From the UHGV virus genome UHGV-1544975: a stretch of DNA of 31,654 nucleotides; one strand, written 5' to 3'. Both the position numbers and the translations under genes were made by a program. Shown one piece after another: positions 898 to 26,323 of the stretch. How positions within the stretch are numbered: position 1 is the first letter of the stretch; every line of letters begins with the position of its first letter. The notes under the pieces are model-generated. The model had not been told where the DNA came from. It did no database searches and saw nothing but the letters and a program-made list of their open reading frames with translations. The DNA is from a virus.

Positions 898-3372
898 TTA
901 TTGCGGAGTGACATCCTGAGGTCGCCACCAGTATGTCTGGTTAAACTCTTTCTTCGAACGTTGCTCCATTTTACGCAAATAGCCTGGTGAAAAATACTCC
1001 TGCATCTGGTTAAAAATCATGTGATCGAGAGCCGCCTTCAAGTACCAGAGATTCGCACCTGGCATCAAACCTTTCCCCAGCTTCACCAGATCACCACCAG
1101 TCTGCTCACTCTTCCCTTCCACAGCATTTAACGGTATGCCCTGAGCAATCTTCACTACGTCATCAACCAGACCAGCTACCGGGCCAAGCATCGACGCCAG
1201 CGCGCCGCTTCCGTACCTAGTGTGATCTGACAATAAAAAGTCACCGTAAAGGCCAAGACCACCACCTTTCAGTAGAGCACCAAGCCAAAATTTAGCAGCA
1301 TCTTCTCCTGTCATCTCGCGAGGATTACGACCAGACGCAAGGTCGTTAAGTTGCTGCGACAAAGCGCCAAGAATGGTCGTACTGGCAATAAACGTCGCAA
1401 TATATGCCGCACGCCCACCAGCAGACGGCATACCCATAGCGCGTGACCAGTGACGCATAACCACCGAGATAGGGAACGATTTAAACAGGAAAACACTTCT
1501 CGTTAATTCACCTTTCCATGTTCCACGCTGAATACCAGAACCGGTTATCAGTTGCTCACGTGCTCCTGGTGTAATAACAGCCATATCAACTTCTTCAGTT
1601 ACGGCACCGAGCAGTTTACGCATTGCCTCAAATTTCACGCGTTCAGGCTCACCAAGATGTTTAACTGCTGAATCAGGGATACGCATAATGCTTTCCGGTG
1701 TCAGCATCGTATTATTACCGTTCCCCCAGTCCTCCTGTTGCGCCAGCTTCCATACGCTCCAGTCTGTGTCAGTAATCCCTTTGCTTTTCAGGATACGAAA
1801 ATCAGAGTCATCGAGGCTACGAAGGTCTGGTGTCCGTGACACTACTTCTCCCAGGCTTCCCATCATGGTTACGCCATAGGCGCGCTTGTGCGCATCTGAC
1901 CATGCTGTAAGCCCACTGGCACGCATTACCGCCGTTGCCGCCCAACGAGACACTGACGGCCCCATATTATCCATCGCCCAGCGGTTAACGCTGCCAAGTA
2001 GAGATTCCATCGCCAGACCAGCGCGGCGCGCCCGCGCAAGTTCTGTACGGTTCGTTGGGTCCATAGCTTCAAGCTGGTTGCGGAATAACTGGTTCATTGG
2101 AAGGTTGGTCACCTTCGCAGACAGATACATGGTTCCAAGATCAGAGAACGATGATAGCAACGCAGATCCGAGTCTGCTGGCAACCAGCCAGTTGCGGATA
2201 TTGTCAGACCATCGCGCGATGTGCGGATTCGCTACAGGCTGTGTCTTTCCGGAAATAAAGTTGTACAGATTCTCTGTGTTGTTCGCCAGCCGCTCGACTT
2301 TACCGGTTTTACTCGGGTTAGCTGTTGCCGTTTCTGCCTTCACCTGATCAAGAAGAGAGCGGAAAACATGATCGGGGTTTGGGCCATATGTTTCCACCAG
2401 TGCAATATCTTTACTGATACCTTCCAGGTGACCGACCATGATTTCCCATAGAGAGCGATCGCCATAAAGTTGCTGATATTGCAGATAGGAATCTGCATCT
2501 TTGAAATGTATCTGTCGTGATGCATTACCACGGTTAGCACGTGCGCCGGAAATTCGCATTCCGGTATCAGTAAGCTTATTCAGCCCACCAGTAGCGATCG
2601 TGTTATAAGCCTCTCCAAGAAATGCAGACAACTCGGCATCGTTCATCAGTTGTCCATCGGCTCGGATATAATATTTGCGATCCAGCTTACCTATAACATC
2701 GCTAACCCACTTATCCTTTGATACCGCCCCAACCTTTTCCATAGAATGATGTTGAGGGAACCCCCAGTTTTCGAGATAGCCAATGTCCCCACCAGCATCA
2801 TTAAACCGGCGGCGCAGTAGATCTGTCACTTCTCTCCACGCCTTAGCACCTTTTCTTGCTTTAGCATTGCCAGTATTTTGCCCTCGCATTTCATATACCA
2901 GGTCACGTACGCCCGCTTCATCTTCAAACAGACCAAAAAAGCGAGGATCAACTGCTTCGAATGCCTCCTGCAATTGACTCAATGCATAATCACGAGTGGC
3001 TTTTGTTCTGGACTCAACAGAGAGGAAATTCGATTTACCGTCTGCATTAAAAGCAATAGTACGGTTAAGAGCGCCAAGTTTCCCATCAGCCCCTTGATAG
3101 CTATTGATAAATTTATCCAATCTCTGACGTGCGGCTATAGTGAGGGCCACACGACGTTTCTTTAATGCCGCTTCTCGCTGTAATTCTTCAGATGCCAATT
3201 GTGCTGCACGATATAGCCGCTCTGATTCGGAAAGTTGTCTCCACGACATCGGGTCATCACGAGCAATGGAGCGCATATTTCGATAAATGCGGTCTTCAAT
3301 GCTCTGTATTTCTCGCGCCGTTAACGTGCGCTGCGCCGCCTGCTGGACCGCTTGTATACATTCCTGTCTCAT
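898..3372 (-). CDS. Large internal virion / ejection protein (824 aa)
   Basis: Size and position at the distal end of the virion module; hydrophobic segments typical of ejection proteins; no specific family recognised. Confidence 0.45.
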   Translation of the reverse strand: MRQECIQAVQQAAQRTLTAREIQSIEDRIYRNMRSIARDDPMSWRQLSESERLYRAAQLASEELQREAALKKRRVALTIAARQRLDKFINSYQGADGKLGALNRTIAFNADGKSNFLSVESRTKATRDYALSQLQEAFEAVDPRFFGLFEDEAGVRDLVYEMRGQNTGNAKARKGAKAWREVTDLLRRRFNDAGGDIGYLENWGFPQHHSMEKVGAVSKDKWVSDVIGKLDRKYYIRADGQLMNDAELSAFLGEAYNTIATGGLNKLTDTGMRISGARANRGNASRQIHFKDADSYLQYQQLYGDRSLWEIMVGHLEGISKDIALVETYGPNPDHVFRSLLDQVKAETATANPSKTGKVERLANNTENLYNFISGKTQPVANPHIARWSDNIRNWLVASRLGSALLSSFSDLGTMYLSAKVTNLPMNQLFRNQLEAMDPTNRTELARARRAGLAMESLLGSVNRWAMDNMGPSVSRWAATAVMRASGLTAWSDAHKRAYGVTMMGSLGEVVSRTPDLRSLDDSDFRILKSKGITDTDWSVWKLAQQEDWGNGNNTMLTPESIMRIPDSAVKHLGEPERVKFEAMRKLLGAVTEEVDMAVITPGAREQLITGSGIQRGTWKGELTRSVFLFKSFPISVVMRHWSRAMGMPSAGGRAAYIATFIASTTILGALSQQLNDLASGRNPREMTGEDAAKFWLGALLKGGGLGLYGDFLLSDHTRYGSGALASMLGPVAGLVDDVVKIAQGIPLNAVEGKSEQTGGDLVKLGKGLMPGANLWYLKAALDHMIFNQMQEYFSPGYLRKMEQRSKKEFNQTYWWRPQDVTPQ

Positions 3373-3377
3373 TTAAT

Positions 3378-5180
3378 TTAACCTCTCAAGAAACACGCCA
3401 CAGCGACATCAAACAGGCTGGAATCCTGTATTGCCTGCTCACTTTCCCTGTTCGCTTCATCCAGTACTTCACGCGCACTGCGCGATTGTGGATTACCATC
3501 ATCATCCAGCACGGTGATTATCATGTCCGGAGATTCAAGCAGCGAGTCTTCAGCTATACGCAGATCAATATCTCCTGCCGGATCTGCCATCATTTTTTGT
3601 TCTGTCTGTTGCAATATCTTACCGGGCTCAAAAGGAGCTACTTCGTCTGGCGTCCTGACCTCTGCTGTTTTATAGAATGAAACAGCCTGAGCATTAAGTT
3701 CACTTTCTGCCTGCTGTCGTCGTGCCAGTTCTGCTCGAGCTTCAAAAAACTGACCTCCAGGCTCGTGCGGCGCCAACGCGTTACGAGAAAATTCCAGGCG
3801 TTCTTGTGCCTGCCGGATTCGTTGGTCAATATCGCGAAGTCTGGCCTGTTTATCTGATCGAGCACGAGATAAAGCCTTACCGCTACCGGTTGGCTCTTCT
3901 GCAAGAATTTGTGCGCGCTGTTCAGTGAGATTTTCAATAATTCGTTGGCTATTAGCGATTTCAGACTGGTAAACCTGTCTATCGCCACGCGACAAAAGCT
4001 GCGCGGCCTGTTCTTCAAGCAACCGATTTTCTATAGCGCGCGCCGTTACTCCATCATCTACAGATGACAGAGCCTCATTAACTGCCTGAGACAGCAGACT
4101 CTTGCGCCCAGGAATTTCACTGAAAGATGCAGACTCAACAATGCTGGCAACGTCTACAGGTCTCCCCTGGCTAACATCAGACATGGCTTTTCGCAGAGCC
4201 TGAATGTGCGAATTACGCGAAAGCACGTTGATCGGAACGCCGGGAGCAATATCAATTTCAGCATGATGAGCGGCATTCGCCGCCAGTGCAGCATCAATAT
4301 CAACTGGTGAAAAATTTGGTGTGCTTGTAGACTCGCCGCGAGAGTTAATAAATCTGCCGACACCACCAAACGCCACCCCAAGAACAGCATCAATAGCAAT
4401 TGCCTGTCGATCCAACACATCATACTGGTTAGCCATTTCGCTATAGCCACCATCACGAAGCGTTTTTGCAGTAAGCCCACGCTGTGCCATACCGAACGCA
4501 ATATTTGTACCTGCGGCATAGGCAATATCTGGCGTTGCACGTACTGCTGTTGCTGCGGCGCGTCGCACTGAACTTTCACCCGTCCGCGCAAGCTGAGCCG
4601 CCACACCTTCCGCCAGCGCACCACCAGCACGTAACCCGAGGCTCATAGGGATCAGTGTTCCGGCACCAGCAGTAATACCCTGCACTAATCCCGCTTCCTG
4701 CGCCGTCCTGAAATCAACACCCTGTGCTGTCAACCGTTCAAACTCAGAAAAACCCTGTAGAGAAGTTACCGCCGCAGCACCTCCGACCGGACCACCGAGC
4801 GTTGTACCGACAACAGCCTGCCCGCCCATATCGAACAACCCATAAAGGACCTGCCCGGCGGTTCCGGTTGTCGCGGCATCAGGCGTCAGCCGCTTAACCT
4901 GCTGCTCTGCTAGTTTTCTCTGCTCAGCAATGTATGAAACTGAAGTGTCATTGAGCGAGGTGTTTTCGTTAACAAGCTGAGCAATCGGTGATACGATTTT
5001 ATCCATCCCTGCCCATAGCAACTGATCTGGCTTTGCCACCAGCCCGGAGTACAAACCAGACAATGCCGCTCCTACAGCATTGTCGAAAAAACCAACATCG
5101 CTGTTAAAGCCAACTGGATTTGATGCTGCTTCGTCAAGCTGCTGATTCTGGTTTACTGGATTAAGGCCAAAGTAACTCAT
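3378..5180 (-). CDS. Internal virion protein (600 aa), Ala/Gly-rich with a coiled-coil C-terminal part
   Basis: Position between two other large virion proteins; 4-nt overlap with the upstream gene. Confidence 0.45.
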   Translation of the reverse strand: MSYFGLNPVNQNQQLDEAASNPVGFNSDVGFFDNAVGAALSGLYSGLVAKPDQLLWAGMDKIVSPIAQLVNENTSLNDTSVSYIAEQRKLAEQQVKRLTPDAATTGTAGQVLYGLFDMGGQAVVGTTLGGPVGGAAAVTSLQGFSEFERLTAQGVDFRTAQEAGLVQGITAGAGTLIPMSLGLRAGGALAEGVAAQLARTGESSVRRAAATAVRATPDIAYAAGTNIAFGMAQRGLTAKTLRDGGYSEMANQYDVLDRQAIAIDAVLGVAFGGVGRFINSRGESTSTPNFSPVDIDAALAANAAHHAEIDIAPGVPINVLSRNSHIQALRKAMSDVSQGRPVDVASIVESASFSEIPGRKSLLSQAVNEALSSVDDGVTARAIENRLLEEQAAQLLSRGDRQVYQSEIANSQRIIENLTEQRAQILAEEPTGSGKALSRARSDKQARLRDIDQRIRQAQERLEFSRNALAPHEPGGQFFEARAELARRQQAESELNAQAVSFYKTAEVRTPDEVAPFEPGKILQQTEQKMMADPAGDIDLRIAEDSLLESPDMIITVLDDDGNPQSRSAREVLDEANRESEQAIQDSSLFDVAVACFLRG

Positions 5181-16876: not shown

Positions 16877-16965
16877 ATCAATGACTCCGTACGCAATTAA
16901 ATTATTACCAATTTAACCACATATGATTTATTTATCGTAGACAGTTGACATTTAATGCACGAATT

Positions 16966-16982
16966 ATTACCTTTCAGGTAAG
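16966..16982. promoter_or_regulatory. Operator-like palindrome ATTACC-TTTCA-GGTAAG upstream of the portal operon
   Basis: One of about nine copies of the ATTACC-N5-GGTAA motif. Confidence 0.45.
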
Positions 16983-17303
16983 TAAATGGTTCATTCCGGT
17001 TATTAACCTGACTGGCTTGTCGTTAAATTGAACAGGTGGAGTGAGCTTTTATTTTGAGCAGTACGGCGTATGGCACATGCGCCGATAGCGGTCTGGATAC
17101 GTTTAAGGGGCACCCTCCCTTGCTCGGGCAAACGAACCAGGTAGCCGGAATGTGCAAGTCGAGCGGTTTTATTCCGCGCACGGGGATTCACCATCCCGGC
17201 GATTCGGTGTGACGCCTCGGAAGAGACGAGGGTACAACGATGAGAGCATTTATGGAGCCGCGACAAAGTGTGGCGCCTTAACAGGCTAAGTGCTCTCAGC
17301 GTT

Positions 17304-17380
17304 GTGGCATTAGCTCAGTTGGACAGAGCAACCGCCTTCTAAGCGGTTGGTCGCAGGTTCGAATCCTGCATGCCACGCCA
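17304..17380 (+). tRNA. tRNA-Arg (anticodon UCU), 77 nt including 3' CCA
   Basis: Folded by hand: perfect 7-bp acceptor stem GTGGCAT/ATGCCAC, D-stem GCTC/GAGC, anticodon stem ACCGC/GCGGT, loop CTTCTAA, T-arm GCAGG-TTCGAAT-CCTGC, discriminator G, CCA. Confidence 0.9.
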
Positions 17381-17423
17381 GAATCACGCCTAAGGACCGT
17401 GATGCCAGAAGTTCCAGGTGCTT

Positions 17424-17465
17424 GGCGGTGATGGTTTCCCTTGAAGGACTATCACCGCCCTTTTT
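17424..17465 (+). terminator. Rho-independent terminator after the tRNA (GGCGGTGAT...ATCACCGCC then CTTTTT)
   Basis: 9-bp stem plus T-run. Confidence 0.6.
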
Positions 17466-17543
17466 ACAGCAGGACGCCATTGCGATGACTTCATGCTGTA
17501 AACCAGTACAGCCACGGAAGGCATAACTCATTGCTTCCAGTTC

Positions 17544-17567
17544 GCCCGGTTCGCCGGGCATTTTTTT
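17544..17567 (+). terminator. Second terminator-like hairpin (GCCCGG-UUCG-CCGGGC then 7 T) directly upstream of the DUF2829-like gene RBS
   Basis: 6-bp GC stem, UUCG tetraloop, 7-T tract; RBS AAGGTGAG follows immediately. Confidence 0.6.
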
Positions 17568-17578
17568 AAGGTGAGATT

Positions 17579-17875
17579 ATGAGCGAAACATCAACAGTAT
17601 CTTTCTCCACTGCTTTGTCATCACTCAAAGATGGTAAGCGCATTGCACGTGCCGGATGGAATGGCAAAGGCATGTATCTGCAACTGGTTAAGCCACCGCA
17701 ATCGGCCACTCCGAACGAGTGGCGATTTGACGTTACATGCGGTGACGAGTATACATTTGTACCTGGCGTTAAACTTCTACCGTGGATTGGGATGAAAACT
17801 GCTGACGGTTGCTTTGTACCGTGGCTGGCATCTCAAACCGATCTGCTATCTGATGACTGGATTGTAATTCAATAA
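17579..17875 (+). CDS. DUF2829-like small protein (98 aa), candidate Tad2-like anti-Thoeris protein
   Basis: Strong RBS; motifs ARAGWNGKGMYL and PWLASQTDLLSDDW match my recollection of DUF2829; opposite strand to flanking late genes. Confidence 0.5.
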   Translation: MSETSTVSFSTALSSLKDGKRIARAGWNGKGMYLQLVKPPQSATPNEWRFDVTCGDEYTFVPGVKLLPWIGMKTADGCFVPWLASQTDLLSDDWIVIQ

Positions 17876-17879
17876 CACC

Positions 17880-17891
17880 GTGACATGTCAC
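17880..17891. repeat. 12-bp perfect palindrome GTGACATGTCAC, copy 2 of 3
   Basis: Exact match; between the DUF2829-like gene and the large terminase 3' end. Confidence 0.8.
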
Positions 17892-17895
17892 AAAC

Positions 17896-17922
17896 AGCCA
17901 GCCTATGAGCTGGCTTTGTTTT
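17896..17922. terminator. Terminator hairpin (AGCCAGC-N6-GCTGGCT then TTTGTTTT) at a convergent gene junction
   Basis: 7-bp stem with T-rich tail on the plus strand. Confidence 0.5.
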
Positions 17923-17965
17923 ATCCTCACCAGAGGATATCAACGACATTATCCCCACCAGCGGA

Positions 17966-20050: not shown

Positions 20051-20067
20051 GTTACCGTTGTGGTAAT
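20051..20067. promoter_or_regulatory. Operator-like palindrome (minus-strand reading ATTACC-ACAAC-GGTAAC) with an extra GGTAAT half-site, just upstream of the terminase gene
   Basis: Motif copy read directly; lies inside the spurious N-terminal extension of the track ORF. Confidence 0.45.
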
Positions 20068-20144: not shown

Positions 20145-20156
20145 GTGACATGTCAC
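20145..20156. repeat. 12-bp perfect palindrome GTGACATGTCAC, copy 3 of 3
   Basis: Exact match; overlaps the stop codon of 20153..20494 in the same register as copy 1. Confidence 0.8.
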
Positions 20157-20494
20157 ACTATTAATTTCGTTTCATGCCAGCCTTTAGTCACCCAGCATTG
20201 CGAGTCACCATTACACGGGCATGAATTAACTGGAACTCTCTCGCCGCACTTACCGCAACATTTTCTGCTGATCGATTTTATACGCCCGCGCACGCGTGCA
20301 TCATCCTGGCGGATCAGTAACGCTATATACTCACCAAATTCGTAAGGCGCACGCCCGGGGCGACGCGTGGCACAGTTACGCTCCAGCATTTCAATTTCCT
20401 GAGCATCCAGCACAATCTCCAGCTTACGTACACCGGATGCAGCTTGTCTGGCTCTCTGAGCGGCTTTGCGCTCTGCTGCTGATTTAGCCATCAA
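20153..20494 (-). CDS. Cys-rich small protein (113 aa), possible zinc-binding regulator
   Basis: Basic N-terminus; C-terminal cysteine cluster CCGKCGERVPVNSCPCNGDSQCW; sits where lambdoid phages carry Q. Confidence 0.4.
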   Translation of the reverse strand: MMAKSAAERKAAQRARQAASGVRKLEIVLDAQEIEMLERNCATRRPGRAPYEFGEYIALLIRQDDARVRGRIKSISRKCCGKCGERVPVNSCPCNGDSQCWVTKGWHETKLIV

Positions 20495-25738: not shown

Positions 25739-26323
25739 ATGAAAAGTATCCAGGACGTCCGCAGGCAAAATCTCAACGACTTGATCGACCGTGAATTCAA
25801 TGGTGTTCAGACGCGGATGGCAGAAAAACTTGGAACTCAGGCAAATCTGGTAAACCGCTGGGCTCTTGGCAAGAAGGTTATCGGCGACCAGGTTGCACGA
25901 AAAATTGAAGCTGCCGCCAATAAACCCCGTAACTGGCTTGATATTGATCGTTCGCTTTCTCAGGAGGGTTTTCAGCCTGTCGGACCAAGCGACATTGGTC
26001 AACTGGCGGCTCACAACCTGGAACGCTGGATGAGCGAAAGCCGCGACCTTTCAACACAGGGAAAACTTCACCGCGCATCCGGCGTAGCCCAGGTGACAAT
26101 CAGCCGCCTGTTAAACAATGAGGTCAGCGTTTCCATTTCCACCCTGGAGAATGTTGCATCCGCATTCGGGCGTCATGGCTATGAATTACTGATTCACCCG
26201 CACGACCCTGCGACCATCAACTATGATCGCTCGCGCTACGCATTGTTACCCGAAACCGAGAAAGCAAAGATCGAAAGTTACATTGAATTTGTCATCAACC
26301 AGAACGAAAAAAGCAAACAATAA
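25739..26323 (+). CDS. Repressor-like protein with two HTH domains (194 aa), no S24 peptidase domain
   Basis: N-terminal and central segments both look HTH-like; divergent from the Cro-like gene; followed by a terminator. Confidence 0.5.
   Translation: MKSIQDVRRQNLNDLIDREFNGVQTRMAEKLGTQANLVNRWALGKKVIGDQVARKIEAAANKPRNWLDIDRSLSQEGFQPVGPSDIGQLAAHNLERWMSESRDLSTQGKLHRASGVAQVTISRLLNNEVSVSISTLENVASAFGRHGYELLIHPHDPATINYDRSRYALLPETEKAKIESYIEFVINQNEKSKQ

Follow-up and report, generated by a model that had tools for sequence, protein, structure and literature searches.

How a short plus-strand block comes to lie between the terminase and the head genes of a prophage, when both of these are encoded on the minus strand, and what this means for late transcription, is the question raised by UHGV virus genome UHGV-1544975 (31,654 nucleotides; this whole stretch of DNA is called the window). 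A first-pass annotation had described positions 17304-17922 as an opposite-strand cassette that splits the late operon and carries a tRNA-Arg(UCU), two terminators, a small gene and a final hairpin. We favor, with moderate confidence, a different reading, in which the plus-strand block of about 16945-17923 would be a conserved accessory transcription unit rather than an insertion, with 17304-17922 forming its 3' two-thirds. The elements listed in the cassette were all found, and it was its extent that needed correction: the plus-strand unit appears to start at about 16945, and it includes a structured leader RNA at 17063-17303, upstream of the tRNA.

The window flanks were 98-99% identical to Escherichia coli phage phiV10 and approximately 81% identical to the Salmonella SPN1S/epsilon15 group (genus Uetakevirus), and judged by its sequence, the window is an epsilon15/phiV10-like prophage (Uetakevirus). 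The open reading frames (ORFs) on either side of the block are co-oriented on the minus strand, as had been proposed, and the plus-strand block does separate them:

20112-17966, minus strand: TerS and TerL (window ORFs)
16876-14976, minus strand: gp3-like protein and portal (window ORFs)

The phiV10, epsilon15, and SPC32H records share this order: terS-terL, a small gene in the opposite orientation, and then gp3, portal, and the head genes. In the phiV10 record, the hairpin 3' of terL is annotated as the terminase-operon terminator, and the epsilon15 record annotates a terminator ahead of the small gene as well as repressor, integration host factor (IHF), and RNase III sites in the intergenic region. 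In a four-genome alignment, 16880-16985, 17466-17578, and a stretch after the stop codon (TAACACC-GTGACATGTCAC-T3, where T3 is the last terminator of the unit) were near-invariant, and the ORF between them was unrelated from genome to genome. The terL-gp3 region of epsilon15 and phiV10 matches the window in position, strand arrangement, second leader, terminators T2 and T3, and operator, with 98.5% flank identity for phiV10; it differs in that the slot holds a PF13876 (N4 gp49/Sf6 gp66) ORF (epsilon15p50, PhiV10p03), whereas the window carries a Tad2-family ORF, and the public records leave the 240-nt RNA unannotated, as does that of phiV10 the tRNA, antisense to which it has a CDS (coding sequence) that is probably spurious. 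Among 104 Uetakevirus-like loci with enough upstream sequence, the RNA core was present in 97/104 and the tRNA in 76/104, and 6/104 were deletion forms. These last include epsilon15, a deletion derivative that has lost most of the RNA and the tRNA and has retained the plus-strand gene slot.

The idea that the block is a recent opposite-strand insertion interrupting a single late operon, with the mRNA reading through it, draws on the co-orientation of terminase and head genes around an oppositely oriented block and on the weak minus-strand U-tract of T3. The layout of leader, slot, and terminator was present in all relatives examined, however, an operator-bearing region precedes gp3/portal, and phiV10 has a terminator after terL, so that we regard such an insertion as very improbable. 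Comparison with relatives lacking the block had been suggested as a check; none lacked it among epsilon15, phiV10, the SPN1S group, and the Klebsiella and Enterobacter phages, and because it is conserved across the Uetakevirus relatives, the block is essentially part of their ancestral core. Since the plus-strand unit and T3 lie between them, the terminase and head genes are not one simple operon but separate minus-strand units. Of the two courses that had been considered for late transcription, namely, reading through the block or restarting near 16900-17000, the restart is more likely, in view of the phiV10 terL terminator and the conserved, operator-bearing divergent region from which head-gene transcription would begin. 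This region, 16880-16985, was near-invariant across phiV10, epsilon15, and SPC32H and carries sites matching the repressor and IHF sites annotated in epsilon15. Its minus-strand sigma-70 signals are weak, and an activator may therefore be needed for the restart of head-gene transcription.

The start of the plus-strand unit was placed in the same region by two overlapping features:

16945-16973, plus strand: promoter-like TTGACA-17 nt-TACCTT, read from the sequence; TTGACA is invariant in phiV10, epsilon15, and SPC32H
16967-16981, no strand assigned: operator-like palindrome TTACCTTTCAGGTAA, overlapping the -10 element and start site; same motif as the epsilon15 "repressor" protein_bind features

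We infer that TTGACA-17-TACCTT is the promoter of the plus-strand unit. The epsilon15 record holds two "repressor" protein_bind features with the motif TTACCTTTCAGGTAA, and in the window this motif had 15 matches at three mismatches or fewer, against 0.57 expected, clustering around the Cro/C1-type helix-turn-helix gene at 25739-26323 and the replication genes. Copies of the form TTACC-N5-GGTAA begin at 16967, 20052, 23276, 23338, 25284, 25669, 26381, and 26443. The copy at 20052-20066 falls inside the 224-aa terS ORF as mechanically extended; therefore, the true terS start is probably downstream of 20052 and the terminase promoter also operator-bearing.

Downstream of this putative promoter, covariation revealed a structured RNA, whose elements are as follows:

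17063-17303, plus strand: structured leader RNA of about 240 nt, supported by covariation and a covariance-model match of 154 bits; it abuts the 5' end of the tRNA
17064-17071/17077-17084, plus strand: helix P1 of the leader RNA
17092-17095/17138-17141, plus strand: helix P2
17140-17158, plus strand: conserved 19-mer GGTAGCCGGAATGTGCAAG, the core of the RNA
17183-17186/17194-17197, plus strand: helix P4
17189-17192/17206-17209, plus strand: H-type pseudoknot, CACC:GGUG changing to AACC:GGUU
17215-17219/17227-17231, plus strand: helix P5
17236-17250/17289-17303, plus strand: P6, a long sixth helix with compensatory variants that closes a variable insert

For the five-helix model including the pseudoknot, examined in 60 distinct sequences, 96.8% of cells were paired, compared with 28-54% when the partners were slid. 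Of 25 pairs, 11 change on both sides, and the covariation score of 0.300 (0.134 for shuffled alignments) was reached by 0/500 shuffles. The RNA was assigned to the plus strand because G-U pairs are tolerated only on that strand. A possible long-range alternative from RNAalifold pairs GCACAU of P1 with AUGUGC of the 19-mer, and neither of these strings varies. With the covariance model, no second or diverged copy was detected in the window, the single match being that of 154 bits. A protein-coding explanation of the region, either as 17003-17266 on the minus strand or as a CDS of the PhiV10p04 type, was not favored, given the non-triplet indels, the compensatory helix substitutions, and the G-U pairs confined to the plus strand.

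The leader RNA appears to be undescribed. Rfam 15 gave no match to it at the gathering score or at E<=10 in the window, none in 12 related loci, and none at E<=5 in the lambdoid phage mEp460, and no description was found in full-text literature searches (on the 19-mer core, the phiV10 tRNA-Arg, and prophage processive antitermination); the apparent novelty rests on these negative database and literature searches. The RNA is nevertheless common: of 5426 complete E. coli genomes, 1840, or about a third, carry it, and it was unannotated in all the matches listed. Copies of about 80% identity were found in the lambdoid phages mEp460, cdtI, Ayreon, and 2H10, in Stx2c and Stx2a phages, and in P1/P7, and further copies in Klebsiella, Enterobacter, and Stenotrophomonas phages; among species representatives, a dozen genera of Enterobacterales had the 19-nt core. 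Since the exact 19-mer served to retrieve the IMG/VR and GTDB copies, its invariance in them is in part a product of the retrieval; copies retrieved by BLAST (P1, lambdoids, SPC32H) have it as well.

In four annotated lambdoid phages and 7/7 lambdoid-type loci of IMG/VR, the RNA comes right after a cI-like gene, a terminator, and the pL-position promoter, and has the same orientation as the early-left genes. The surrounding gap, about 780 nt long, contains no annotated same-strand gene, although short CDSs have been drawn over the RNA in two records; in the Ayreon record, both a terminator and a promoter are annotated on the stretch from cI to the RNA. In lambda, this position is that of pL-nutL-N. 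The mEp460 order is RNA, tRNA-like module, a homologue of terminator T1, a second long A/U-flanked stem, and the first gene, the T1 homologue having been found by folding, as its loop is too long for the simple terminator scan. A Q-like gene is present in mEp460 and no N gene is annotated there, nor was a conserved ORF found in the cI-proximal lambdoid gap. At least one terminator-like hairpin lies within about 500 nt downstream of 89/113 RNA copies. In P1, the 5' domain is located between trnI and the ban ribosome-binding site (RBS), in the C1-controlled ban operon, and no terminator follows it. Rfam matches to C4 antisense RNA and isrK lie about 2 kb from the leader RNA on the minus strand of two lambdoid loci (L004 206-394, L006 276-464), and with these in the same immunity regions, such phages carry several RNA regulators.

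The RNA is followed in the window by a tRNA gene and its trailer:

17304-17380, plus strand: tRNA-Arg (anticodon UCU) with CCA encoded (ARAGORN; Rfam RF00005)
17383-17403, plus strand: trailer hairpin ATCACGCC-TAAGG-ACCGTGAT, found again in unrelated phages 3' of tRNA and tRNA-like modules alike

The tRNA-Arg(UCU) with which the cassette had been said to begin was recovered by both programs (73.3 bits in Rfam against a gathering score of 29; anticodon tct in ARAGORN), and its 3' end, ...ATGCCAC-G-CCA at 17371-17380, encodes the discriminator base and CCA. The best host tRNA-Arg was 85.9% identical, and by this comparison, the gene is a phage-specific allele. In 31 window ORFs, 10.5% of Arg codons are AGA, and this codon, at 6.3 per 1000, is used about three times as often as in E. 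coli on average. Genes for a tRNA-Arg(UCU) that reads rare AGA codons are known from other phages, e.g., argN/argO of Stx phages, and the window tRNA shares with these the anticodon, an enterobacterial host, and raised AGA use in phage genes; it differs in being one interchangeable option 3' of a conserved structured RNA, where most copies carry a tRNA-like scaffold instead.

A tRNA-Arg(UCU) follows the RNA in 28 of 121 unique copies. In most of the others, its place is taken by a scaffold that starts with the same GUGG and has an acceptor stem, a D arm, a T-like arm with a 9-nt loop, a hypervariable center, and a CCA-like tail displaced by one base. The idea that these are real tRNAs was rejected, as ARAGORN gave only noise under relaxed settings with introns allowed. 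The conserved features of the scaffold are those that RNase P recognizes, which suggests that the tRNA-like module is an RNase P processing handle; a decoy role is also possible. In one IMG/VR contig (L012, 3300011501_000023; 5' domain 4033-4214, minus strand), the roughly 100 nt that come directly after P6 fold as a class-II cloverleaf with the anticodon loop CUUUUAA and a 9-nt T-loop, which ARAGORN does not call as a tRNA. Its GACUUUUAAUC is identical to the E. coli tRNA-Lys anticodon arm, and the module might act as a decoy for anticodon nucleases that target tRNA-Lys, or it might be no more than a degenerate tRNA. The scaffold centers of two other IMG/VR loci (L069 and L100) contain GATGGTGAGGTAATGGCTCACCATGGCGACGA, a hairpin that, judged by eye, resembles helix 11 of E. 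coli 16S rRNA in the sense orientation.

Such scaffolds raise the possibility that the leader 5' domain acts in trans as a stable RNA, whether by sponging a host factor, by regulation, or as an anti-defense decoy, with the tRNA or scaffold serving mainly as an RNase P handle; the variable scaffold center might then display decoy hairpins. That a true tRNA-Arg and non-tRNA scaffolds occupy the same position, with conserved arms and hypervariable centers, is consistent with this, as are the tRNA-Lys-like anticodon loop of one scaffold cloverleaf, the location of a tRNA immediately 5' of the domain in P1, and the putative anti-defense gene encoded nearby. On the other hand, the P1 domain stays fused to the ban 5' untranslated region, the CCA-like tail is one base out of place, and RNase P cleavage is a prediction. 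We consider a trans-acting role doubtful.

The remaining elements of the unit lie 3' of the tRNA:

17424-17466, plus strand: terminator T1, a 14-bp stem (17424-17459) and CUUUUUA, the stem followed by CTTTTTACAG; it ends the RNA/tRNA module
17466-17543, plus strand: second leader of about 80 nt, with a hairpin whose loop is CGCCATTGCGATGAC (17475-17489) and a hairpin GGAAGGCA...TTGCTTCC (17516-17538)
17544-17567, plus strand: terminator T2, GCCCGG-UUCG-CCGGGC (17544-17559) followed by A and U7 (17560-17567)
17568-17574, plus strand: Shine-Dalgarno (SD) sequence AAGGTGA directly after the T2 U-tract, invariant in all leaders; the ATG is at 17579
17579-17875, plus strand: cargo ORF of 98 aa, Tad2/AcrIIA7 family (DUF2829; PF11195, E 3e-24)
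17880-17891, no strand assigned: 12-bp palindrome GTGACATGTCAC, the 3' boundary of the exchangeable ORF, invariant in four phages
17896-17923, no strand assigned: terminator T3, an A-tract, a hairpin (17896-17915), and a U-tract, the hairpin followed by TTGTTTTAT; on the terminase strand it is the annotated terminator in phiV10

A consensus terminator scan called 4 sites in the region, compared with 1.9 +/- 1.4 in shuffled sequences, three of them plus-strand sites inside 17304-17922, and each of the predicted terminators T1, T2, and T3 has a G+C-rich hairpin directly followed by a U-tract. The two terminators that had been noted after the tRNA were thus borne out by scanning, by folding (T1, -22.8 kcal/mol, z -4.35; T2, -12.7 kcal/mol), and by compensatory changes in relatives. 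Hairpins homologous to T1 occur in lambdoid copies (GGCGGTACCAG/CTGGTACCGC) and in Uetakevirus copies, with stems that differ and remain complementary, and in T2 a double compensatory change preserves the stem, which reads GCCCGG/CCGGGC in 71 and GCCCAC/GTGGGC in 31 of the IMG/VR leader/T2 copies. The second, UUCG-loop terminator does abut the RBS, the U-tract ending at 17567 and AAGGTGA starting at 17568, and it is plausible that a terminator in this position reduces expression of the small gene. The final hairpin after that gene was also found, at 17896-17915 (T3, -15.7 kcal/mol). Its minus-strand U-tract is weak (GUUUGUG); T3 is probably bidirectional, ending both the cargo transcript and the convergent terS-terL transcript. 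The second leader was conserved in 35 phage records and >100 IMG/VR contigs, irrespective of the downstream gene. Its loop CGCCATTGCGATGAC is invariant in the Escherichia, Salmonella, Klebsiella, and Enterobacter relatives, and the flanking stem varies.

How the cargo gene is transcribed behind two terminators can be explained in more than one way. If T1 and T2 were efficient full stops, the products would be a tRNA with a long leader and a short, terminated leader-2 RNA, and Tad2 would be made as a trickle or from an unrecognized promoter or activator. Both hairpins are canonical and kept by selection, and the second leader with T2 has a typical small-RNA shape, with weak Rfam matches to RyhB and other small RNAs (E >2). 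The promoter scan, however, gave no promoter-like site between the tRNA and the ORF (17380-17578), the second leader included. Furthermore, no relative has a gap between the U-tract and the SD, and 117/124 copies have an intact cargo ORF, which argues for expression of the cargo through the leader; full stops appear unlikely.

The leader RNA may instead act in cis as a processive antiterminator that modifies its own polymerase to pass T1, T2, and later terminators. This possibility, which along with a trans-acting RNA released by RNase P is a leading candidate for its function and which we nevertheless judge improbable, would refine rather than exclude the reading of the block as an accessory unit, as cargo expression would depend on the plus-strand promoter. 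The RNA always comes early in a repressor-controlled operon, near its 5' end, and runs in the same direction as the genes that follow; in lambdoids it stands at the place of nutL/N, and mEp460 has a Q-like protein and no annotated N. Obstacles that an antiterminator would have to overcome follow it: a T1 homologue and a second stem in mEp460, T1 and T2 in Uetakeviruses, and hairpins in most copies as counted above. In addition, its pseudoknot and high conservation across three unrelated phage groups would fit the binding of a conserved host machine. Against this, there is a single copy per phage, whereas HK022 has putL and putR; an RNase P cut at the adjoining tRNA or tRNA-like module should sever the tether to the polymerase; and the P1 copy leads to the ban RBS without a terminator. 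A lambda boxA/nut reading of AGTGCTCTCAGCGTT, with its boxA-like GTGCTCTCAGCG, was rejected, as this string is merely the 3' strand of the covarying helix P6. Homology to the put RNAs of HK022 and HK639 was likewise rejected: BLAST and nhmmer against HK022 gave nothing significant, and an unfiltered covariance-model search yielded only E >1, both for HK022 and for the part of HK639 where a putL-like RNA is annotated.

In its placement, the leader RNA is nevertheless put-like, lying in the nascent transcript just 3' of a repressor-controlled promoter and upstream of terminators. The HK022/HK639 put RNAs are also structured and stand at the start of a repressor-controlled early operon, before terminators and with no annotated N; the leader RNA differs in being approximately three times longer, pseudoknotted, present once per phage, and followed by a tRNA or tRNA-like module, and its antitermination is putative. 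A second comparison is with the RNase P-processed P1/P7 C4 and P4 CI RNAs and with MALAT1-mascRNA, in which a functional RNA likewise stands beside a tRNA-like structure that could define an end; C4/CI share with the leader RNA a phage context of immunity or early operons. Unlike C4, the leader RNA has no match to Rfam C4 (RF01695), real C4 and isrK occur elsewhere in the same lambdoid loci, and its processing is putative. We suggest, tentatively and with more doubt than conviction, that the leader RNA with its tRNA or tRNA-like module is a third, undescribed route of early antitermination without N or put in Uetakeviruses, lambdoids with no annotated N, and P1. If true, roughly one in three complete E. 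coli genomes would carry such a route.

The small gene, which had been called DUF2829-like, was confirmed as a member of PF11195 (85.7 bits against a cut-off of 25, residues 8-97 of 98, E 3e-24), a family formerly of unknown function and now named "Tad2-like". Solved Tad2/AcrIIA7 homologues were detected by phmmer (8kbi 3e-15, 9eib 2e-14, 8v3e 3e-14, 8sme 1e-11). By these matches, the product is a clear Tad2-family member and a putative anti-Thoeris sponge. Tad2 proteins sequester the Thoeris signal 1''-3' gcADPR, and it has been argued that such sponges are made early in infection (10.1101/2023.05.01.538930). Like Tad2 of Bacillus phage SPO1 (gp34.65) and AcrIIA7, the window protein has a single domain of about 90-100 aa that scores above the PF11195 threshold; it is distant from the solved proteins (phmmer E 3e-15 to 1e-11), and its ligand specificity is predicted by homology only. 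Its gene lies between the terminase and portal genes of an enterobacterial temperate podovirus, behind two terminators. The allele is rare, with three occurrences among 5426 complete E. coli genomes, whose annotation of it says no more than DUF2829 protein, and the closest phage protein was 76% identical. Klebsiella phage ST512-KPC3phi13.3 has a 44%-identical Tad2-like gene in the same slot, from which it follows that the slot has captured the family at least twice.

A cargo census, in which IMG/VR was scanned with the leader/T2 pattern, gave the 124 copies mentioned above, with at least nine unrelated protein families, in 117 contigs, directly 3' of the invariant SD: PF13876 N4-gp49/Sf6-gp66 (72), a 140-aa family (23), a 143-aa family (7), Tad2-like (6), an 85-aa family (3), SPFH-like (2), and several singletons. 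Of the eight or more other cargo families, PF13876 is the only one with a Pfam match. By this pattern, the locus is a moron, or hot-swap accessory slot, in which unrelated ORFs are placed between conserved non-coding flanks. Morons and T4-type PeSL shuffling motifs likewise have a single variable ORF bracketed by conserved stem-loops, with many genes per slot (PMC4122927); in the window, the 5' flank is a terminator plus SD, not a promoter plus stem-loop, and the 3' flank includes the 12-bp palindrome, which is repeated at two other small-gene ends. Three window copies of GTGACATGTCAC were found (398-409, 17880-17891, 20145-20156) against 0.05 expected; the motif may mark the edge of a cassette or bind a protein. 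All three adjoin small, accessory-looking ORFs (406-702 minus, Tad2 plus, 20153-20494 minus), at the stop codon or just past it, and those at 398 and 17880 directly precede a terminator hairpin.

For the accessory unit that we favor, these elements can be assembled into a working model. The unit would be silent in the lysogen, and loss of repressor, on infection or induction, would allow the plus-strand promoter to fire. RNase P and 3' processing would release the tRNA for decoding of AGA in phage genes, and T1 and T2 would stop most polymerases, so that a read-through fraction, possibly aided by the leader RNA, makes Tad2. Sequestration of Thoeris gcADPR signals by Tad2 would then protect the infection. 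T3 would end the plus-strand transcript and the convergent terS-terL transcript, with the head genes restarting from the conserved divergent region. Finally, recombination in the conserved flanks, which are formed 5' by the second leader, T2, and SD and 3' by the palindrome and T3, would allow a precise swap of the cargo ORF.

Several observations weigh against this model. The -10 element is weak (TACCTT), and a simple scan called only an overlapping TAGACA-18-AATTAT and not the hexamer pair proposed here. The operator at 16967 could instead serve a divergent minus-strand promoter; moreover, since the motif also occurs upstream of terS (20052-20066), it marks repressor control and does not prove early timing. 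T2 looks strong, with six G-C pairs, UUCG, and U7, and read-through may be negligible without a helper. The proposed role in codon supply leans on a general figure for AGA usage in the host, and we infer the exchange of cassettes by flank recombination from their pattern only.

The cassette by itself fits a known kind of element, the morons, and it is the contiguous, unannotated RNA family that adds to its interest, with a function that is putative. This covariation-supported RNA has gone unannotated in classic model phages (P1, Stx-converting and SfV-like lambdoids), and if it controls read-through or acts in trans, it bears on the early program of N-less lambdoids and on the expression of neighboring prophage cargo. 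The cassette also offers a clean natural plug-in slot for counter-defense genes with fixed regulatory flanks, which may be useful for finding new anti-defense genes.

Some individual copies of the leader RNA deserve mention. In epsilon15 (L002 3547-3638), the first hairpin of the RNA is fused to the 3' half of T1, the intervening RNA and tRNA being deleted; the covariance model still gives 38.6 bits for this remnant. The RNase III site annotated just upstream (L002 3450-3549) overlaps only its first bases. Several hypothetical CDSs have been annotated over the structured RNA or the tRNA, namely, PhiV10p04 (L001 3211-3462 minus), F853_gp37 and F853_gp36 of mEp460 (L004 2443-2811 and 2853-2996 minus), and SJJBTUD_0037 of Ayreon (L127 2061-2180 plus), and these are probably spurious. 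The exact 19-mer also matched two Firmicutes bins of metagenome-assembled genomes (L248 and L260; GTDB "Oscillospiraceae" and "Bacillota"), most likely through contamination of the bins by enterobacterial phage contigs. In SPC32H (L003, ~3090-3150), the variable region of the RNA holds an extra insert of about 57 nt with T-arm-like hairpins (CTGGTTCAATTCCAG, GGTCAGTTCGATTCGGAC), which suggests that tRNA fragments accumulate in this region.

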